DNA of 33,614 nucleotides from a virus (taxonomy: Duplodnaviria > Caudoviricetes). Below, in pieces: positions 7,827-30,297 of this stretch. The first letter of the stretch is position 1; each line of letters begins with the position of its first letter. The stretch covers positions 1 through 33,614 of the IMG/VR virus record IMGVR_UViG_3300020043_004190. One strand, given 5' to 3'. Under the pieces are notes generated by a model. It ran no database searches, was not told the DNA's origin, and was given only the letters and a program-made list of their open reading frames with translations. The position numbers and the translations under genes are program-made.

Positions 7827-8525
7827 ATGGCAATAGTTTATAGACATAGAAGATTAGATGATAATTCTATTTTTTACATAGGAATAGGTGTTGATGAAAA
7901 AAGAGCATTTCAATTACGCTCAAGAAATCAACTATGGAAAAATATAGTTTTAAAAACTGATTATAAAGTTGAGATAATAGCAGAAAATATTGACTATGAT
8001 AAAGCTAAAGAATTAGAAATATTTTTAATTAGTATTTACGGTAGAAGAGATTTAAAAAACGGTATTTTATGTAATATGACTGGTGGTGGCGATGGAAATA
8101 CAAATATGAGTGATGAATTAAAAAATAAAATATCCAATAGTTTAAAAGGAATTAAGCAATCTGAAGAAACAAAGTTAAAAAGAAGTAATGCTTTAAAAAA
8201 AGTTTGGGAAAACCAAGACTTAAGAGAATTAAAAAGAAAACAAAGCTTAGAATTAAATAGATTAGGATTAATAGGTACAAAAGGTAAACCTTCAAAAAAG
8301 AAGGGTATTAAAATTTCACAAGAAATTATAGACAAAGTTTCTAAGGGATTAAAAAAATATTATGAAAATAATAAACCGCATAATTTTAAAGATATAGATA
8401 TTGAGATAAAAATCAATATTTATAAAGATTATGAAAACGGAATTAAAAAATTTCAACTACATAAAAAATATAACCTATCAAGAACAATAATAGAAAGAAT
8501 AATAAAAGATTATGAGGCTAAATAA
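7827..8525 (+). CDS. Free-standing GIY-YIG-like homing endonuclease with NUMOD3-type repeats
   Basis: IVYRH...FYIGIG, conserved R and E, NMTGGGDG, SEETKLKRS repeats; very AT-rich relative to neighbours. Confidence 0.75.
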   Translation: MAIVYRHRRLDDNSIFYIGIGVDEKRAFQLRSRNQLWKNIVLKTDYKVEIIAENIDYDKAKELEIFLISIYGRRDLKNGILCNMTGGGDGNTNMSDELKNKISNSLKGIKQSEETKLKRSNALKKVWENQDLRELKRKQSLELNRLGLIGTKGKPSKKKGIKISQEIIDKVSKGLKKYYENNKPHNFKDIDIEIKINIYKDYENGIKKFQLHKKYNLSRTIIERIIKDYEAK

Positions 8526-8961
8526 TGTCGGTTACAATTTGATAAAGGAGTTTGAAGGATTAAGCCTTAAACCATATAAGTGCCAAGCAAAAATTAGCAC
8601 TATCGGTTACGGTTCGACTTACTATGAAAACGGAACGAGGGTACAAATGAGCGATGCACCAATCACGAAACAACGTGCAGAGCAATTACTACAACATACT
8701 GCTGATAGGTTTGCCTCAAAAGTGGCTAATCTACTTAAAAAACCCGTTACTCAAAATCAGTTTAATAGTATTGTATCATTTGCTTTTAATTTAGGCGTAA
8801 GAGCATTACAAAACAGTACTTTATTAAGATTGGTAAACATAAACCCAAACGATGCAAACATAGCTAAAGAGTTCTTAAAATGGAATAAAGCCGGCGGTGT
8901 AGTTGTTAAAGGGTTAACCAATAGAAGAATCAAAGAATCAGCTTTGTACTTCACTAAGTAA
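8512..8961 (+). CDS. Endolysin, GH24 phage lysozyme
   Basis: FEG...Y.C....TIGYG catalytic motif, QNQF..VSFAFN.G and W.KAGG....GL..RR..E. Confidence 0.92.
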   Translation: MRLNNVGYNLIKEFEGLSLKPYKCQAKISTIGYGSTYYENGTRVQMSDAPITKQRAEQLLQHTADRFASKVANLLKKPVTQNQFNSIVSFAFNLGVRALQNSTLLRLVNINPNDANIAKEFLKWNKAGGVVVKGLTNRRIKESALYFTK

Positions 8962-9290
8962 TGTTTGTTATTATACGCAAAAGGGTATAATTTGTATAGA
9001 ATAGCAAACATTATACGTTTATAAATATAACTTTACCTAAATTGACTAAATTATAGCTTTATAAATATAACTTTTTGGGATTACAATACTACAATATACC
9101 TACTTTTTTGGATTACAACCTTATAAATAGTAAATTTTTATATAATTTTTAGGGTTGCAACTGTATAAATAATCTCCTTTTCTATACCGATAGGGTGCAA
9201 TGTGATAAAAATAAGCGCATTCTTATCATATCGGGTATAATAAGCGCATTTCATTATAAAAAACACACAACACTTAAATATAAAATCTCA
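8961..9290. repeat. Non-coding array of degenerate ~20-bp palindromic units at ~40-bp period
   Basis: TTATAC-N8-GTATAA-like units at 8971, 9011 and 9051; GGG..(T/C)AA unit ends at 9160, 9200 and 9240; AATAAGCGCATT at 9210 and 9239. Confidence 0.65.
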
Positions 9291-9360
9291 ACTTGGTGGG
9301 TACTTGTATAATGTATTGTAAAAAACCGATAAGTATGGGAAAACAATACTTACTAAGTAG

Positions 9361-9657
9361 TTACCTGCCATTTTCCCAACGACCGACAACCCAATCAGGA
9401 ACAATTCCATCATTAGTTCTATTGGCTAAATCTTCATCCCAAGCGAAATTGACTACTATCTTTTCATCCGAACTCCAATCCCTGCCAAAATCTTCAATAG
9501 TCAATTCAGCATCGTATTTAGACAGTAATGATTTTAACTCCTTTTGGAATTGTTCAACCTTATCCTTACCCGACAAAAAAACGGCAGGTAACAATGGTTT
9601 TGCGTCAGGCGGGGCGACTTGCTCCGAACGAACATTTGTGGTTAATTTATCTTTCAT
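9361..9657 (-). CDS. Cassette-borne hypothetical protein (98 aa)
   Basis: Starts inside the attC loop and its stop codon coincides with the TTA of the left core site. Confidence 0.65.
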   Translation of the reverse strand: MKDKLTTNVRSEQVAPPDAKPLLPAVFLSGKDKVEQFQKELKSLLSKYDAELTIEDFGRDWSSDEKIVVNFAWDEDLANRTNDGIVPDWVVGRWENGR

Positions 9658-9713
9658 TTTTCAAATTTACTTTTGTGGTTAATAATCCCGCCCGAACGCA
9701 AAGCCATCGGACG
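9361..9713. mobile_element. Integron-type gene cassette (353 bp)
   Basis: Left junction G|TTACCTGCC (9360-9369) is the exact reverse complement of GGCAGGTAAC (9583-9592) at the start of the attC-like hairpin; right junction G|TTAAAA at 9713. Confidence 0.75.
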
Positions 9714-9719
9714 TTAAAA
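9586..9719 (+). other. attC-like recombination site (134 bp)
   Basis: R'' AGGTAAC (9586-92), arm ATGGTTTTGCGTCAGGCGGG (9594-9613) pairing with CCCGCCCGAACGCAAAGCCAT (9687-9707) with one bulged base, R' GTTAAAA (9713-19). Confidence 0.75.
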
Positions 9720-9804
9720 AGTATCTTTTAACAATACAAAATTATACAAATAAGTAATACAAATTACACAATTTACTATTTAGACTTATTCTAAATTATT
9801 AACT

Positions 9805-9860: not shown

Positions 9861-10970
9861 ATGATTAAAGACGGTAATAAGAAATTCGGCATTAAAGATA
9901 AATACGCCTTAATGTTAGGCTTAGAGTTAAACCATTCAAAGACTTATAGGTTAACCCCACAAAAGCAAATCGAATACTACAACCTAAAAGCAAACGAGGG
10001 TATTTTAAACGCTTGCGAAAACGTAGGTATCAATCCCGAAACAACTCCGATGTTATGGCTAAAGACTAAACACGAAAGCGTAAGAGTTACAAATCCATTA
10101 TTTAAAGCACCGGAGCAAACACAAATCGAGGATTTACATAAAGCGTTATTAAGCGATTTAAAAGACTATTCGCCAAAATACGATACTTATCAAAGACAAA
10201 CTTTAAAAGACCCGCATTTATTAGTTATAGATCCCGCAGACATACATATAGGTAAATTATGTAGTGCATTTGAAGTTGGCGAAAGTTATGACAATCAAAT
10301 AGCCGTTAATCGAGTTTTAAACGGAGTTAATGGAATACTTGACAAAGTAAGTAGTTTGAATATTGATAAAATACTTTTCGTAATTGGTAATGATATTTTA
10401 CATATCGACAATCCTAAAAGAACTACCACAAGCGGAACGCCACAAGATACAGACGGAATGTGGCACTCTAATTTCTTAATCGCTAAACAGTTGTATGTAG
10501 ATATTATCGAGAAATTAATGTGTGTTGCCGATGTTGAAGTAGTTTTTAACCCAAGTAACCACGATTATACAAACGGGTTCTTTTTGGCTCAACTAATTGA
10601 AACGCATTTCAGGAACTGCGAAAACGTAAAGTTTGATTGTAGTATAGCACATAGAAAATATTTTACTTATGGTGAAAACTTAATAGGCACTTCGCACGGT
10701 GACGGTGCAAAACAAGCTGACTTACCGATGCTTATGGCTCACGAAAGTAAAGACTGGGTAAACTGCAAACATAAGTACTTCTACATACACCACTTTCACC
10801 ACAAAATAAGCAAAGATTATATGAGCGTTTGTGTTGAGGCTTTACGTTCCCCAAGTGGCACAGATAGTTGGCACCACCGTAATGGTTATGAGCATAGTCC
10901 TAAAGCAGTTGAGGGATTTGTACACCACCCAAAGCACGGGCAAATAATGAGAATTACTAATCTATTTTAA
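9861..10970 (+). CDS. Calcineurin-like metallophosphoesterase
   Basis: DIHIG, GNDILH, SNHD, HGD and HHFHH motifs; ATG 9861 preferred over TTG 9837. Confidence 0.8.
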   Translation: MIKDGNKKFGIKDKYALMLGLELNHSKTYRLTPQKQIEYYNLKANEGILNACENVGINPETTPMLWLKTKHESVRVTNPLFKAPEQTQIEDLHKALLSDLKDYSPKYDTYQRQTLKDPHLLVIDPADIHIGKLCSAFEVGESYDNQIAVNRVLNGVNGILDKVSSLNIDKILFVIGNDILHIDNPKRTTTSGTPQDTDGMWHSNFLIAKQLYVDIIEKLMCVADVEVVFNPSNHDYTNGFFLAQLIETHFRNCENVKFDCSIAHRKYFTYGENLIGTSHGDGAKQADLPMLMAHESKDWVNCKHKYFYIHHFHHKISKDYMSVCVEALRSPSGTDSWHHRNGYEHSPKAVEGFVHHPKHGQIMRITNLF

Positions 10971-14176: not shown

Positions 14177-15289
14177 TTAAAAATCTACTTCTTCAGTTAT
14201 TAATTTTCCCGTCTTAATTGTAAACCATTGCATCCCGTTACTATTTCCGCTGTCATATTCAACATCGATAAATTTGCAATATTTCTGCACCCAAATATTA
14301 AACTTCTTACGGGTTAAGAACTTTTGATAATCTTTGTACTCATTCACGAAATTGTTAAAGGCAAATTGTTTGTCAACTCTTTCGTTTCTTAAACAGTTGT
14401 CAGGTTCGTGTATCCATTCGTAAAACTCCATCGAGGTTTCAGCAATGAATTTTCTCATCTTAATATTTTTAGCGTTTTGCTTAACCAATCCATTAGCTAA
14501 AAACTTCTGCAAACAGTCAACCATATAATTATCAAACTTTTGAAAATCAATCAAATCCCAATCGTCAAACAGCTGTCTGCCGAACTCATCCTCTGGAGTT
14601 AATTTACTGCCGTAGTATTGTGCTATCTCGACCTCAAATCGTCTACGGTCGTGGCTGTTTCCTTCTCCCTTAATTGCGTAGTTAGTTGAGATTATAAGTT
14701 TTGGACTGTCGTGTACGTTTAGCTTAATAGCGTCTTTATTTTTACGCTCTAAGGTTAAGCCTTCCGTTACTAAACTAAACTTTTCCTCAAAAGAAAATCC
14801 TTTGGCTACATCGTCAAAAACTAAAATCTTTGTATCGAGTGATACCGTTTGATAAGCGAAAGACTTTTTGCCATCAAATAACTTACCATCGATTATACTT
14901 GTTTTTCTTATTTGGCTTATACCTTGCACAAATACACCTTTACCGGTTCCGCCTTCGGGGTTTTCACTTATTACCTCGTCGTTAAGGATTACGGCTTTGT
15001 TGTTGCTTCTATTTTTGTAAGTTGATAGCAAGTATCCAATCACACACTCAACGGCAAATGGTTCATTATTTGATATGTTGTTAATAAATGTTTGATAATC
15101 ATTATCAAAGTCCTCAATCTCTACAAAGTCACGGTCTAATATGTGGTCATTCCAAATGTAATAGCCAACATCGATAAAGTCTATTAGTTTAAAATCGTCT
15201 TTGGTAACTTCTAAAACTCCGTTTTGATAAGGTATGTAAGATTTAAACTTTGTGTCCGATAAAATTGATAGGTCAATACTTTCCAACAT
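14177..15289 (-). CDS. Primase-associated SF3 (D5/P4-type) helicase domain; in-frame continuation of 15299..16510
   Basis: GGTGKG Walker A, LVFDD Walker B, STN motif C and RRR arginine finger. Confidence 0.8.
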   Translation of the reverse strand: MLESIDLSILSDTKFKSYIPYQNGVLEVTKDDFKLIDFIDVGYYIWNDHILDRDFVEIEDFDNDYQTFINNISNNEPFAVECVIGYLLSTYKNRSNNKAVILNDEVISENPEGGTGKGVFVQGISQIRKTSIIDGKLFDGKKSFAYQTVSLDTKILVFDDVAKGFSFEEKFSLVTEGLTLERKNKDAIKLNVHDSPKLIISTNYAIKGEGNSHDRRRFEVEIAQYYGSKLTPEDEFGRQLFDDWDLIDFQKFDNYMVDCLQKFLANGLVKQNAKNIKMRKFIAETSMEFYEWIHEPDNCLRNERVDKQFAFNNFVNEYKDYQKFLTRKKFNIWVQKYCKFIDVEYDSGNSNGMQWFTIKTGKLITEEVDF

Positions 15290-15298
15290 TAAAAGATA

Positions 15299-16510
15299 CT
15301 ACTCACTAAATAAATTTTGATACCCAGCGCAATAGTTCCAAACTGTAAACTCTCTTTTTTCCATCAAATAGTCAAGAACAAAATCCTTTATTACTTCGAC
15401 TGATGTTGTTTTAACTTTATTGCTTTGTATAAATACCCAACTCGGTTTTTGACTGTCGTTTGGATAATGCTTTTTAAAGCCGTTACGCTCTAAAAATAAC
15501 TTATACTTTAAAGGCTCTATTTTTACATTTCCTTTTTTATCAATAGTCCAAAAATCGTCGTGGGTTTCTTCTTCCTTTAATTCGTTGTAAACATCCTCCG
15601 CTATGTTATGCTTTTTAAGTACTTCCTCTTTGCCGTTCTTTAAATCAACTTTAATGGCTTTGATTTTATTATAGTCCTCAAAAAATTTACTATTGAACTG
15701 TCTTAAACGATATGCGCTTTTAATAGTGGTCTTTGCTTCACGTTCTGAGAAGTCACCGATTATAACGTTATTTAAGATATATCCTTCGGCTGTGCCTTCA
15801 CTTATACCATATTCACAAAAAGCACCCGCTAAATCAAATATAAATGCGTTTCTTTCACCCTCTCTAAAGTCTTTGCTCCAGTTGAAAGCCATTATCTTTT
15901 CGATAATCTTATCCTCGTCGCTAATTGGCACTAAAGGGGCTTTCTCTTTTATCTCAAATCCTTCATCTATTATATTGGCTTCAAAAGTGGTTGCATCCCA
16001 ATTCACATAAATATTAGGGTCATAGCTTTCAAAACAAACTCGGTCAACGTTGCAGTTAGATATATCGAAATAATCAAAATCAAATTCCTTTTGAAAAGCC
16101 TTAAATATTTTAGGGTGTGTTTCTTTTGTTGCGGTTGGTATCTTAACTACGCCTTTAATTCCGTTCCCTGATGGGGAAATAAATAGTAATAAGAAATGCG
16201 GGTTTTCTTTAAGTAGTTTTAAGTGTTCAAACATCACCTCGTCATTCTCATACTTATCAAAATCCACTACCATCAAACCCGAATGTTTTGTCAAAGATTT
16301 TGAATTACGCTCTGAAAACTCACCCGCAAATAAAATAGACGGTAATTCAGTTTTAAGGGCGTTTCTCAACTCTTTAGTCTCTGATTTACGGATGCGATTA
16401 ATTAAGTCCTTAGAAGTACCTTGTTGTATCCTTTTGATTATTTTTTCAATAGGAACTATAAAGGGAACATCCTGAGATTTAAATAAATCTTTAAAAACTG
16501 ATACGTTCAT
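15299..16510 (-). CDS. Primase-polymerase N-terminal part (VirE_N/BT4734-like plus PriCT-like)
   Basis: HSGLMVVDFD, FISPSGNGIK, DRVCFESYD and EGERNAFIF motifs; ends at a single TAG in frame with the helicase part. Confidence 0.75.
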   Translation of the reverse strand: MNVSVFKDLFKSQDVPFIVPIEKIIKRIQQGTSKDLINRIRKSETKELRNALKTELPSILFAGEFSERNSKSLTKHSGLMVVDFDKYENDEVMFEHLKLLKENPHFLLLFISPSGNGIKGVVKIPTATKETHPKIFKAFQKEFDFDYFDISNCNVDRVCFESYDPNIYVNWDATTFEANIIDEGFEIKEKAPLVPISDEDKIIEKIMAFNWSKDFREGERNAFIFDLAGAFCEYGISEGTAEGYILNNVIIGDFSEREAKTTIKSAYRLRQFNSKFFEDYNKIKAIKVDLKNGKEEVLKKHNIAEDVYNELKEEETHDDFWTIDKKGNVKIEPLKYKLFLERNGFKKHYPNDSQKPSWVFIQSNKVKTTSVEVIKDFVLDYLMEKREFTVWNYCAGYQNLFSE

Positions 16511-20421: not shown

Positions 20422-20552
20422 CAATCAATTAATTAACTTTTTAAAAACATAGTGCAGAGTTTCCCTCTTTCTCCGCTACTAATTGGGAAACGTACTAAAC
20501 ACACGGCTTCCCAATTTTTTTTTAAAATACAGTACACAAATAATACACAAAT
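20363..20552. other. attP site (tRNA-Ser 3'-end core flanked by arm-type repeats)
   Basis: Core TCCCTCTTTCTCCGC (20462-76); identical 19-mers ACACAAATAATACACAAAT at 20363-81 and 20534-52; immediately upstream of the integrase. Confidence 0.7.
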
Positions 20553-21705
20553 GAAGCCTATTTATTCAATCCCAAAAGTGTCAAAAACTACCTCAAATTG
20601 GTATGTACATTTTCGATACGAGGGGAAACAATTTAGGTATAAGATGAATTTAAATAAGATTGAGGATTTAGAACAAAGAGCTGAAAGTTTTAATCGATTG
20701 TGTATTGCTATTTACGAAAAGTTAAGAAGCGGTTGGAATCCAAACTTAAAAGAAGTTCCCGAAATGGGAACTAATTATACTTTCCTCGAAGCGTTAGACT
20801 TTGCATTATCTAAAAAGAAACCGAACATTTCAAAGAAAACCGCTTTAGGTTATGAAGGAACGATTAAATTTATCAAGACAGCCACAAAACAACTACGACT
20901 AATTAACTTACCGATTACCGAAGTCAAACGGGTTCATATTAAAACGATAATGGAAAAGGCACAGTCAAATCGTTGTTGGACTAATAACGCCTATAACAAG
21001 CACCTAAACCAACTTAAAGCGGTTATGAGTGAATTAATACAGTATGATATAATCGAAAGCAATCCCGCCCACAATATTAAAAATCTAAGGATTGAGGAAA
21101 GCATAGCGCACGCACCCGCTACCGACGAACAAATGAAAGCGATAAAAAAAGAGTTACTTGAAAACCACTACAACTTTTATATTTTTATTCTATTGATTTA
21201 TAGTATAGGAGTTAGACCTGTTGAGATACTAAGCATTAAATTGGATATGATTGATTTGGATGCTGACCTAATAGTGTTACCGCCAAACATAACCAAAGGG
21301 CGTAAGAAGTACCGAACACTACCAATCACAAAACAGTTAAAAGAGTTTCTACAAAGTTTGCAATTTGAAAACTTGCCAAAGTCTTATTATTTATTTGGTT
21401 CGTTTAGACAGCAAGGCAAGGGAAACGTTGGCGCAAGTGTTGATTTTATCCCCGCACCTACTCCGCTTAAAAGAGATACAGCTACAAAACGTTGGCATAA
21501 GATTGTAAAGGTTGGATTGGGTATCGATGTAACTATGTACTCTATGAAAAAGTACGGGGCAAATAAAAAAGCTGAGGCTGGTATTTCTATTGATGCTATA
21601 CAAGGAACGTTTGGGCATAGCAAAAAAGAAACTACTTTGATATACCTGACTAAGCAAAACGAGATTAACCGTAAAGAGATAATGGATAAGTCGCCTGATT
21701 TGTAA
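20551..21705 (+). CDS. int: Tyrosine integrase
   Basis: Arm-binding N-terminus (WYVHFRY), GVRPVE (Arg), TKG (Lys), YSMKK box, FGHS and TLIY (Tyr); probable start ATG 20551. Confidence 0.9.
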   Translation: MKPIYSIPKVSKTTSNWYVHFRYEGKQFRYKMNLNKIEDLEQRAESFNRLCIAIYEKLRSGWNPNLKEVPEMGTNYTFLEALDFALSKKKPNISKKTALGYEGTIKFIKTATKQLRLINLPITEVKRVHIKTIMEKAQSNRCWTNNAYNKHLNQLKAVMSELIQYDIIESNPAHNIKNLRIEESIAHAPATDEQMKAIKKELLENHYNFYIFILLIYSIGVRPVEILSIKLDMIDLDADLIVLPPNITKGRKKYRTLPITKQLKEFLQSLQFENLPKSYYLFGSFRQQGKGNVGASVDFIPAPTPLKRDTATKRWHKIVKVGLGIDVTMYSMKKYGANKKAEAGISIDAIQGTFGHSKKETTLIYLTKQNEINRKEIMDKSPDL

Positions 21706-27943: not shown

Positions 27944-30297
27944 AAGTTAGTATCTACGTAGAGGGTCAGGAACTTGAATTATTCAAAGATGAGAACATCG
28001 AAATCAATTCGAGTGTTCAGAATATTGCGGATATATCAAAAACTTTTAGCGATTTTAGTCAAAGTTTTACCGTTCCTGCATCAAATAAGAACAACGCTAT
28101 ATTTCAGCACTATTATAACACCGATATTGACGGGACATTCAACCCAAATATTAGAGTTTTAGGCTATATCGAACTTGGAAGTTTGCCTTATAAGTATGGA
28201 GTTATTCAATTAGAGGATGTAAAAATCAAAAATCAAAAGGCATACGCTTACACAATTAGGTTTTTTTCATCTACAGTAAGCCTTTCAGACTTATTTAAAG
28301 AGGATGAGTTAAGCGTTTTAGACTTTTCAGACTACGACCACGAATTTGACACCTCTATTTTTAACGCTACATTCAACGAAACGATAGCGGGTGGCGATGT
28401 TTACTACCCTTTAATGACTTCTTTGCGTAATTATATCATTGGAAATGGTACAAATTTAGACATTACACACACGGCAGGAGCGATTAAGTACTTTGAATTA
28501 AAGCCTGCATTAAGACTAAATAGGATTTTTGATGTAATACAGTCGCATTATGGAGTTACTTTTAGACAAGACTTCTTAAATCGTTCGGTATTTGACAACC
28601 TTTTTATGTGGTTGCATAGAGAAGCGGGGCAAATACAAGCGTTTGGAGATGAAACGAGAGTTAATATAACGAGTGCGGGTACTTTAGGGGATATATCAGT
28701 AACGGTAAACACTACAAATGACAGCATAGAATACACCAATACAAGCACAACAAAGTACAAAGTACTCTTTAAGGTAACACCTGCAACGGGGTTTGAGGAT
28801 GTAACCTATAAAGCGAGAATTTACGATAATGGAATAGAACGTACAATCGGAGAGGGAACGGGCGAGCAAACATTTATTTTTGAGGGTTTAGAAAATCAAA
28901 CTTATTTAAACACTTTCACGGTGCAAGCCGTTGGAGATTTTCAATTTACAACCCGTATTTTAGTAAGGTTAAAATTTAGCGGTTTTACAACAGACAAAGC
29001 CACTACAACACCAACTCAAACGCTTTCGGGATTTGCTAACATTTCAGCTTTAATGCCTAAAATGAAAGTCAAAGATTTTGTAGTTTCAATCATCAAAATG
29101 TTTAACCTTGTTTTAGTTCCTATAAATTCAAATACATTCACTTTAATTCCTTTGGATGATTGGTATGCACAAGGGCAATTAATCGATATAAGCGACTTTG
29201 TAGAAACTGACGAGGTAACAGTTAAAAGACCGAAATTATTTAAGCAAATCGACTTTAAACATCAAAACACGGGTCAGATATTAGGCGAGCAATTTAGAGA
29301 GAATAACGGGGGTATTGGTTATGGCGATTTGCGTGCTACTTACGACATCGACGGTACAGAGTTAAAAGTTGAAACTCAGTTTGAGAATTTAGTTTTTGAA
29401 AGATTGACCGATATATCAAACGGGGATTTAACTAATATACAAGTTGGTAAGTCAATCGATAAAACGCTTGAGCCTTACATTGGAAAACCTTTTATCTTTT
29501 ACCGATGTGGTTATGCTTTTTATGACCCACCGATTAAAGCACACGACTTTGGGGATTTAGATTACACTTGGGTAACATCAACGGAAAACGATTTGTTTGT
29601 ACCTCAGGTTAGTAATACGGTTAATTTTTCAAGCGACATAAGTACTTATTTATACAGCGAAATTACACGTAATTTATTTAGTAATTATTGGAGTGATTAC
29701 ATAAGCGATTTATATTCGTTAAAACGTAGGCTAACAACTTACACCGCATATTTGCCTATCGGGGTTTTGATTAAGTTAAGACTAAACGATAGGATAAAAA
29801 TAGGAAGTTACGCCTATATTATAAACTCGATGAAAATCAATTTGGTTAGTGGCAAAGTTGATTTTGAGTTATTAAACTATATCGGTGTGCCTTTCACTTC
29901 GATAAACGATGTCGTTATGCTTACAGCTGATACAGTTGATTATTTTGCCGATACGACTTACTTAACAGCGGATTTGATTTCGTTATACTCGCCCGCTTAT
30001 TCTGGTGTACCTAACGGTGTTGAATTTACAACTTTACAAGTAACACCAAGCGCACAAAATTACGACTGTAAAATCACGGCTAACCAAAACTACTTAGCGG
30101 TTAAAACCAATACGGGTGACGGTACAAGTTGGATAACGTTAGAGAACGCAACGGGAACGCAAACCAACTACTTAAAAATTAAAGTCGATAAATACATCGC
30201 AGGGATAACAGATGAAACGTTAAGCCGTTCGATGGATATCGATGTGACAATCGGGGGCGATACATTTACAATAACAGTAACACAAGGACAACAATAA
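27937..30297 (+). CDS. Tail tip/baseplate hub protein
   Basis: 786 aa; LELFKDE.I...S.Q.I.DISK.FSDFSQSFTVPAS N-terminus. Confidence 0.6.
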   Translation: MLKVSIYVEGQELELFKDENIEINSSVQNIADISKTFSDFSQSFTVPASNKNNAIFQHYYNTDIDGTFNPNIRVLGYIELGSLPYKYGVIQLEDVKIKNQKAYAYTIRFFSSTVSLSDLFKEDELSVLDFSDYDHEFDTSIFNATFNETIAGGDVYYPLMTSLRNYIIGNGTNLDITHTAGAIKYFELKPALRLNRIFDVIQSHYGVTFRQDFLNRSVFDNLFMWLHREAGQIQAFGDETRVNITSAGTLGDISVTVNTTNDSIEYTNTSTTKYKVLFKVTPATGFEDVTYKARIYDNGIERTIGEGTGEQTFIFEGLENQTYLNTFTVQAVGDFQFTTRILVRLKFSGFTTDKATTTPTQTLSGFANISALMPKMKVKDFVVSIIKMFNLVLVPINSNTFTLIPLDDWYAQGQLIDISDFVETDEVTVKRPKLFKQIDFKHQNTGQILGEQFRENNGGIGYGDLRATYDIDGTELKVETQFENLVFERLTDISNGDLTNIQVGKSIDKTLEPYIGKPFIFYRCGYAFYDPPIKAHDFGDLDYTWVTSTENDLFVPQVSNTVNFSSDISTYLYSEITRNLFSNYWSDYISDLYSLKRRLTTYTAYLPIGVLIKLRLNDRIKIGSYAYIINSMKINLVSGKVDFELLNYIGVPFTSINDVVMLTADTVDYFADTTYLTADLISLYSPAYSGVPNGVEFTTLQVTPSAQNYDCKITANQNYLAVKTNTGDGTSWITLENATGTQTNYLKIKVDKYIAGITDETLSRSMDIDVTIGGDTFTITVTQGQQ

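Follow-up and report, generated by a model that had tools for sequence, protein, structure and literature searches.

The question raised by this locus is how a phage that encodes no integron integrase could come to carry what looks like a single integron gene cassette. A first-pass annotation, made from the letters alone, had proposed just such a captured cassette for the window, i.e., the whole stretch analysed here, the 33,614-nt phage genome IMGVR_UViG_3300020043_004190 (L-numbers denote other loci with which it was compared). It held that the phage keeps an attI-like landing pad and loads single genes by means of a host integron integrase. The comparisons described below favor a modified answer: 9361-9713 is probably a gene cassette of a Bacteroidota integron-like system, which lies in a phage-borne attI-like pad and was loaded in trans by a host enzyme.

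The window has a 121-nt terminal repeat and is thus a complete circular phage genome, in which Pfam and PHROG identify a terminase, portal, endolysin, primase/helicase, and tyrosine integrase. The source is a freshwater, Flavobacterium-type phage. Among GenBank phages, the nearest kin of its exonuclease gene are cultured Flavobacterium phages. Furthermore, integrases 51% identical to its own lie beside tRNA-Ser(TGA) genes in two of 201 genomes of the genus holding Flavobacterium aurantiibacter, and the 3' end of those tRNA genes is identical to a 16-nt core at 20462-20477 of the window. On these grounds, the host is probably Flavobacterium or near kin. The core also bears out the annotation's statement that the phage integrase has its own attP, just as a score of 29 bits with the integron-integrase model (cut-off, 265 bits) agrees with its lacking an evident IntI-type insertion. 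The longest listed integrase ORF, with GTG at 20452, includes this attP core, and the real start codon thus probably lies further downstream. Elsewhere in the genome, a homing-endonuclease-like gene (7827-8525; NUMOD3, phrog_314) precedes the endolysin and is missing in the sister phage L001/L002, and the primase/helicase family phrog_28855 is split at 14177-16510 between an ORF of 403 aa and one of 370 aa, which correspond to the two halves of the family. The features of the cassette locus and its anchors are collected in Table 1.

Table 1. Positions in the window of the cassette, its docking pad, and the anchoring genes
Feature	Position	Strand	Remark
Endolysin, left anchor gene	8512..8961	+	PF00959, phrog_7
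Left half of attI-like docking pad; its final G is the G of G|TT	9328..9360	+	33 nt, as in the L260 pad
Left junction; GTTA in common with right junction	9360..9363	+	Overlap of 4 nt against the empty allele; L081 restricts it to GTT
Mobile unit, 353 bp (gene body and hairpin)	9361..9713	+	Missing in L001/L002; exact copy in L081
Cargo ORF, 98 aa	9361..9657	-	Start inside hairpin; stop codon overlaps left GTT
R''-like box, exact complement of cassette start; second exchange point	9583..9592	+	Switch in L084-L087
Bacteroidota-type attC-like hairpin with non-canonical geometry; AAC to GTT spans 126 nt	9590..9715	+	
R'-like right junction G|TTAAAA	9713..9719	+	
Putative leftward promoter -7 element TAnnTTTG, which would transcribe the cargo	9737..9744	-	Predicted
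Exonuclease-like gene, right anchor	9861..10970	+	phrog_704; 99% identical in L001/L002
Phage's own integrase, not the cassette enzyme	20452..21705	+	PF00589, phrog_1; TIGR02249, 29 bits; attP core 20462-20477

Comparison of alleles indicates what moves. The unit moves as a block with its ends in GTT, and in related phages one and the same pad may be unoccupied, contain this cassette, or contain a different one. In a sister phage (L001 and L002, which are identical over the compared region and are counted as one allele), exactly 9361-9713 is missing, and the left half of the pad is kept with few changes; the pad of L005 is similar. This sister is 99% identical to the window in the exonuclease, 91-95% in the backbone, and 80% in the endolysin region. 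The annotated coordinates were all correct (134-nt hairpin span, 9586-9719; 353-nt unit, 9361-9713), and the junction expected upon removal of the unit, ...TAAGTAG|TTAAAAAG, exists as a real junction in L001/L002 (...TAATTAG|TTAAAAAG). Furthermore, L081, a different 47-kb viral contig, has the identical 353 bases between unrelated flanks. There the two sequences agree for 1 further base on the left and 2 on the right and diverge at G|TT at either end, so that the crossover must lie within GTT; the triplet is as narrow a placement as the alleles permit. The empty allele together with an identical 353-mer in another phage places this observation beyond chance. A reading of the cassette in the direction of its gene, with the att site left of 9360, is ruled out by these two alleles.

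A third allele is found in L260, a related phage (85-87% identical in the flanks) and the single match when metagenomes were scanned with the pad motif. Here the same 33 bases precede G|TT, but the cassette that comes after them is another one, of 521 bp; it carries a phage gene of the YopX family, whose name is of phage origin, and its start and R'' are complementary at 9 of 10 bases. Since the right flank of L260 is unlike that of the window, L260 cannot be derived from the same empty site by insertion alone. It had been predicted that relatives would have an empty site or a different cassette at this exact G|TT, and both have now been found. Four public runs were also compared at this region, as contigs and at a likeness of 85. 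Two contigs of run X4 depart from the reference after 9363 into other sequence, run X7 has the cassette in another context, and contigs of runs X1 and X7 join ~9317 to ~9712 via 9-11 other letters. The latter contigs are read here as deletion scars of an earlier cassette, but they could also come from more distant phages. Relatives lacking the ORF had been expected to part from the window at 9360/9361 and 9713/9714; in the X1 and X7 contigs the right G|TT is indeed kept, but the left breakpoint is another one. Among the joints listed for the public-run contigs (15 of 18), none is that of a 353-bp circle. As a separate observation, the interval from the endolysin to the pad (8962-9327) is AT-rich, with many short direct and inverted repeats; it differs from L001 by a 40-nt unit and a segment of ~45 nt, and other deletions occur there in public contigs.

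The start of the cassette is related to its own hairpin. As had been noted, the left junction GTTACCTGCC (9360-9369) has an exact 10-bp complement, GGCAGGTAAC, at 9583-9592; the start and R'' thus agree at 10/10 bases, and R'' and R' boxes with the conserved AAC and GTT are present. Among the 41 inverted-repeat 10-mers lying within 400 bp of each other in the window, this is the only pair that starts with GTT. The system is not unique to this phage genome. A simple finder returned 60 such hairpins in 100 loci plus the window, compared with 3 in shuffled sequence, and in the window plus 180 viral loci, some of which overlap, an upstream GTT is complementary at 9 or more of 10 bases to the hairpin's own R'' for 57 of 62 hairpins versus 268 of 1969 random AAC. 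The window itself has one strong hairpin, which shares 67-72% identity with six hairpins in chromosomes and 96% with a hairpin of a phage-like contig; blastn gave no match for it in GenBank phages, and Rfam and ARAGORN gave none in the window. A second, weak profile match (29964-30140) falls within a structural gene and is disregarded. Just upstream of the exonuclease, 4 of 80 loci have hairpin arrays in the orientation of the window. The notion that such pads load single genes is thus too restricted, since related pads carry arrays. One array (L003, 3340-3510) combines two hairpins of other, shorter types with a nearly empty cassette.

Whether this hairpin is an attC of the integron type, as was first supposed, is another matter. 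An imperfect hairpin with a bulged base is present, but the bulge (9695/9696) is on the R' arm, and the hairpin also has a C-A mismatch and a 5x1 internal loop, a geometry that is not that of a canonical attC. In canonical attC sites, 5-6 bases are unpaired on each arm and extrahelical bases lie near L'' (PMC5027507); in this family, the stem begins 5 nt past AAC on one arm and 1 nt on the other. A test for the L box (7 canonical pairs, a spacer of 5 or 6 nt, both readings, with 6/7 as a pass) gives 4 or 2 of 7 pairs for the window, depending on the reading, and none of 135 distinct family hairpins reaches 6/7, whereas a Vibrio array used as a control gives 21 matches; consequently, the designation "integron-type" is not supported in its canonical sense. 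The C-A mismatch is conserved (C in 115 and A in 99 of 135 hairpins), and by fold energies the bottom-strand arms are the more stable in 104 hairpins versus 25 of the 135. Because the hairpin profile was trained on the 5x1 finder, the geometry of the family is partly circular; this circularity does not extend to the negative result of the L-box test. Folding of the entire hairpin is no more favorable than that of shuffled sequence (z -0.86 and -0.92), a comparison that is uninformative; the signal resides in the ~21-nt arms and in conservation within the family, and the evidence is comparative. Published sites offer a point of reference: IntI1 recombined five of six phage attC sites (PMC9892861), and the sole site on which it failed, P12002L_attC1, is a short non-canonical hairpin of similar design, a single case that the family profile scores low. 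It belongs to a published CALIN of the Polaribacter phage P12002L (L279, 29248-32337), where the hairpins are short (AAC-G...TGTT, 47 and 57 nt) and the methyltransferase genes are on the bottom strand, as in arrays of this family.

Is the pad a dedicated site? Docking halves at the start of host arrays (11 used; one of 12, L125, was dropped because it lies inside a gene) have the consensus T-10 A-9 T-8 A-7 ... A-2 G|TT. At four of these host sites (L149, L151, L152, and L155), a long inverted repeat precedes the docking site and ends ~11 nt ahead of G|TT. With the host-half profile, 25 array-start junctions of phages score above background GTT (p ~1e-7, the background being all GTT in the same loci, coding sequence included); 7 of 32 junctions had been dropped as hairpin arms or as belonging to another hairpin type. 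A at -2 is found in 18/25 of these junctions versus 28% of the background, and TAG|TT in 13/25 versus 8%. The window's own site does not stand out, ranking 65-288 of 1598 GTT sites depending on the profile, and 102-166 with the host profile. Among rows spanning the endolysin to the exonuclease, L001/L002 and L260 alone show the pad motif, and no more than 4 of 37 (duplicates included) have hairpin arms, so that most relatives have neither in this interval. However, what is expected of an attI-like site, a fixed position reused by different cassettes, is found both here (L001 empty, the window, and L260) and in cultured Baltic Flavobacterium phages, in which all five of those examined share one pad with five different first cassettes; many alignment ends among the five lie at GTT and some lie inside hairpin arms. 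This reuse is a stronger argument for a dedicated pad than the sequence profile, although a favored secondary site is possible.

Two of the cultured phages differ by precisely such a unit. In snusmum6-1 (L259), a methyltransferase cassette (2038-2896) occupies the pad, and in snusmum9-1 (L261) it is exactly missing. According to the supplement of the phage paper, snusmum9-1 reaches ~1e6 on strain LMO6 versus 1e11 on LMO9, and snusmum6-1 is equal on both. For two other phages in the same paper, however, passage through the last host restores plating, so that the contrast between snusmum6-1 and snusmum9-1 is confounded. In the main text of PMC7077304, neither "integron" nor "cassette" occurs.

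Hairpins of this family were also sought on the host side. A pattern search returned 10 stretches of Bacteroidota genomes with cassettes in arrays. In three of the five genomes searched, the arrays lie directly behind a co-directional recombinase gene, and in a fourth the contig ends 123 nt past the gene. The first hairpin of the L155 array is of the same subtype as that of the window (69% identity). The host enzyme is a XerA-like protein of ~350 aa with an N-terminal extension of ~75 aa. It scores 185-203 bits with the integron-integrase model (cut-off, 265), being ~42 residues shorter than IntI at the IntI-specific insertion; its best NCBIfam match is XerA NF040815 (203-214 bits; cut-off, 220), and archaeal XerA proteins are the best relatives with a solved structure. 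A first cassette that obeys the complement rule was seen at 12 of the 35 distinct recombinase loci, a proportion that becomes 9 of 11 for proteins at least 53% identical to that of L116. The other 23 showed no first cassette, and some of these are short or XerD-like.

In a scan of 201 genomes of the probable host genus, which scores pieces of a match separately, no IntI exceeded the cut-off (a positive control gave 494 bits in one piece), and 117 genomes matched the recombinase at E<=1e-25, with the break between the listed pieces falling at the insertion. The host integron integrase originally invoked, if meant canonically, thus finds no support, the array-linked enzyme being one without the ~42-residue insertion. 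The other half of that proposal, an enzyme supplied in trans, has fared better: neither the window nor snusmum6-1, the single cultured phage examined over its full length, yielded a host-type recombinase, nor did any of 186 viral loci, and a search of viral contigs that reaches close relatives returned 0 loci. More distant relatives (33-39% identical) of the host enzyme exist in some Bacteroidota phages. Plasmids carry relatives too, one from Chryseobacterium at 63% identity and those from Acinetobacter at 49-57% (hits H96, H97, H100, and H101), and the enzyme family is thus not confined to Bacteroidota chromosomes. Its adjacency to the arrays and the absence of alternatives point, by association, to the XerA-like recombinase as the cassette enzyme.

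The gene carried by the cassette encodes a small alpha/beta protein, whose first ~22 codons lie in the hairpin. It belongs to no Pfam or PHROG family, and its Atlas matches are below 0.9 and mostly unnamed; the protein model (pLDDT 61) gave no Foldseek match at E<=0.001 in two libraries. That it is a host-interaction factor is a guess. Homologues number 148 among 157 candidates and have a variable N-terminus and a conserved core. The idea of a captured host gene is not supported: the body of the ORF is present in 10 viral loci and was not found in the 201 host-genus genomes, of which 17 gave matches to the hairpin alone. In relatives, the proteins beside the exonuclease include five of methyltransferase families and one of the Mom family among 11 scanned.

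In the window, the gene is on the opposite strand rather than reading towards its own attC as in the classical rule. This is general in phages, where the longest ORF is on the bottom strand in 63 of 65 cassettes, 28 of them starting inside the hairpin, versus 6 of 27 host cassettes. To the right of the junction, all seven right flanks examined have TAnnTTTG within 45 nt (7.5% in shuffles), though there is some kinship among these flanks and the genome has 65 occurrences of the motif; TAnnTTTG is the consensus of a -7 promoter element, and its copy at 9737..9744 is a putative leftward promoter element for the cargo. A further shared motif, ATTCTAAAT, occurs once in the window, at 9788-9796, and lies 60-97 nt right of the junction in 7/7 right flanks (window, L001, L003, L005, L033, L065, and L260); it is possibly a regulator site of divergent promoters.

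The R'' box appears to be a second point of exchange. In L084-L087, the body is 93-95% identical to that of the window and the hairpin 53-61%, with the switch right after R''. Of the eight relatives compared, four have a swapped hairpin and one has the body and no hairpin; the swapped hairpins keep self-complementary arms and must thus have moved whole. A switch at this position accords with the variable N-terminus and conserved core of the protein family, and such switches suggest that exchange occurs at both core boxes. In integrons, top-strand exchange at R'' is a known minor route (PMC5027507).

Taken together, these results lead to the following model. In a circular cassette, the start would pair with its own R'' box and complete the hairpin. 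By analogy with IntI, a tyrosine recombinase would then exchange one strand of the folded hairpin, probably the bottom one, with the pad at G|TT, and replication would resolve the strand-exchange junction, as it resolves such junctions in integrons. The enzyme would be the XerA-like recombinase of ~350 aa whose gene stands at the head of host chromosomal arrays with the same hairpins, and it would act in trans during infection or lysogeny. The cargo would be drawn from a pool of phage genes and not from host arrays, and its gene, on the opposite strand and often starting within the hairpin, would probably be read from a promoter in the right flank. If exchange takes place at the R'' end as well, bodies could change their hairpins and N-termini. 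The likely benefit would be a quick swapping of small early genes, often DNA-modifying enzymes that act against host restriction. The model requires that an enzyme without the IntI insertion would handle a folded single strand. A bolder version, which can be put forward only tentatively, is that phages keep their own pads and cassette pool and parasitize a host recombinase that lacks the IntI insertion and acts on hairpins at both core boxes, such that bodies, hairpins, and N-termini reassort and the loading of methyltransferases sets host range on short time scales.

Other explanations have to be weighed against a host enzyme that loads a phage pad. A canonical IntI of the host or of a mobile element might have loaded the cassette, given that the GTT/AAC rule and the polarity are like those of integrons (PMC5027507) and that IntI1 worked on most of the phage attC sites tried with it (5/6; PMC9892861). 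Yet the L box is missing in 135/135 hairpins (4 or 2 of 7 pairs in the window, compared with the 21 matches of the Vibrio control), no IntI exceeded the cut-off in 201 genomes, and the enzyme failed on P12002L_attC1, the one short non-canonical hairpin from a Bacteroidota phage; such an origin is thus very hard to credit. Still less is to be said for loading by the phage's own integrase or by the recombinase of a co-infecting element, which we regard as the least probable of all. The window does encode a tyrosine integrase, and the 33-39% identical relatives of the host enzyme reside in some Bacteroidota phages, but the former has a separate attP core matching tRNA-Ser, and a cultured lytic phage with eight hairpins matches neither enzyme.

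Homologous or microhomology recombination between hairpin ends, without any site-specific enzyme, could draw on the conservation of those ends, could produce the hairpin swaps, and would suit the alignment ends inside hairpin arms in the cultured phages. It would not, however, account for an empty pad that has no hairpin and only GTTA in common with the cassette, for swapped hairpins whose arms are self-complementary and which therefore moved whole, or for the complementarity between start and R'', and it is accordingly very improbable. More weight is due to the possibility, unlikely as it is, that the same cassette system is at work but that 9360 is only a tolerated secondary site of the attG-like GWT kind, situated behind a promoter in a gap that is not essential. 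For IntI1, insertions are reported at a very large number of GWT sites, hot spots among them (10.1101/2022.09.11.507474), the site of the window ranks only moderately among GTT sites, and most relatives are without the pad. What tells against a secondary site is that two different cassettes, and probably a third (the X4 contigs), occupy the very same G|TT, that L005 has a similar pad, that TAG|TT marks 13/25 phage junctions versus 8% of the background, and that five cultured phages share one fixed pad. The reading of a cassette loaded by a host enzyme into a pad kept by the phage is thus preferred.

An empty site, cassette A, and cassette B at one G|TT amount to allele-level evidence for a reusable dock in a phage that encodes no enzyme for it. 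Should the XerA-like recombinase prove to be the enzyme, capture of cassettes by way of hairpins would not depend on the IntI insertion, and part of the mosaic structure of early regions and of the methyltransferase turnover in Bacteroidota phages would be explained. If the bolder version given above is true, there would be a second, mechanistically distinct system of cassette capture common to the phylum and its viruses. Since cultured phage pairs and their hosts exist, the claim is directly testable.

How does this system compare with those already known? Like integrons (IntI/attI/attC, class 1 and Vibrio-type), it has a GTT/AAC core, cassette starts complementary to their own R'', hairpins about as long as attC, a fixed docking half-site where the array begins, and bottom-strand arms that are the more stable. 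Unlike integrons, it has no L box with extrahelical bases on the R'' arm and a 5x1 loop rather than 5-6 unpaired bases per arm; its host recombinase lacks the IntI insertion, has the ~75-aa N-terminal extension, and is co-directional with the array; and the phage cassette genes are on the opposite strand. The host enzyme's best NCBIfam match links it to XerA and the "integron-like" simple tyrosine recombinases (NF040815; PMC8138268). Its resemblance to SALIN/attG (10.1101/2022.09.11.507474) consists of a single cassette far from the integrase, a GWT core, and an enzyme acting in trans; it differs in that the site is reused and is similar to the docking halves of hosts, the enzyme is one other than IntI, the hairpin is non-canonical, and the target is a phage. 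Closest in setting are the phage CALINs of Qi et al. 2023 (PMC9892861), attC-like clusters without an integrase and with methyltransferase cargo, P12002L among them. That paper, however, treats attC as canonical, and its main text mentions no pad of the phage's own, no empty and filled alleles, and no enzyme other than IntI. The literature searched, in which few subscription journals were covered, gave no description of this Bacteroidota variant. Thus, attC clusters in phages have already been published, and what appears to be new is the Bacteroidota variant with its probable non-IntI enzyme and a pad kept by the phage.
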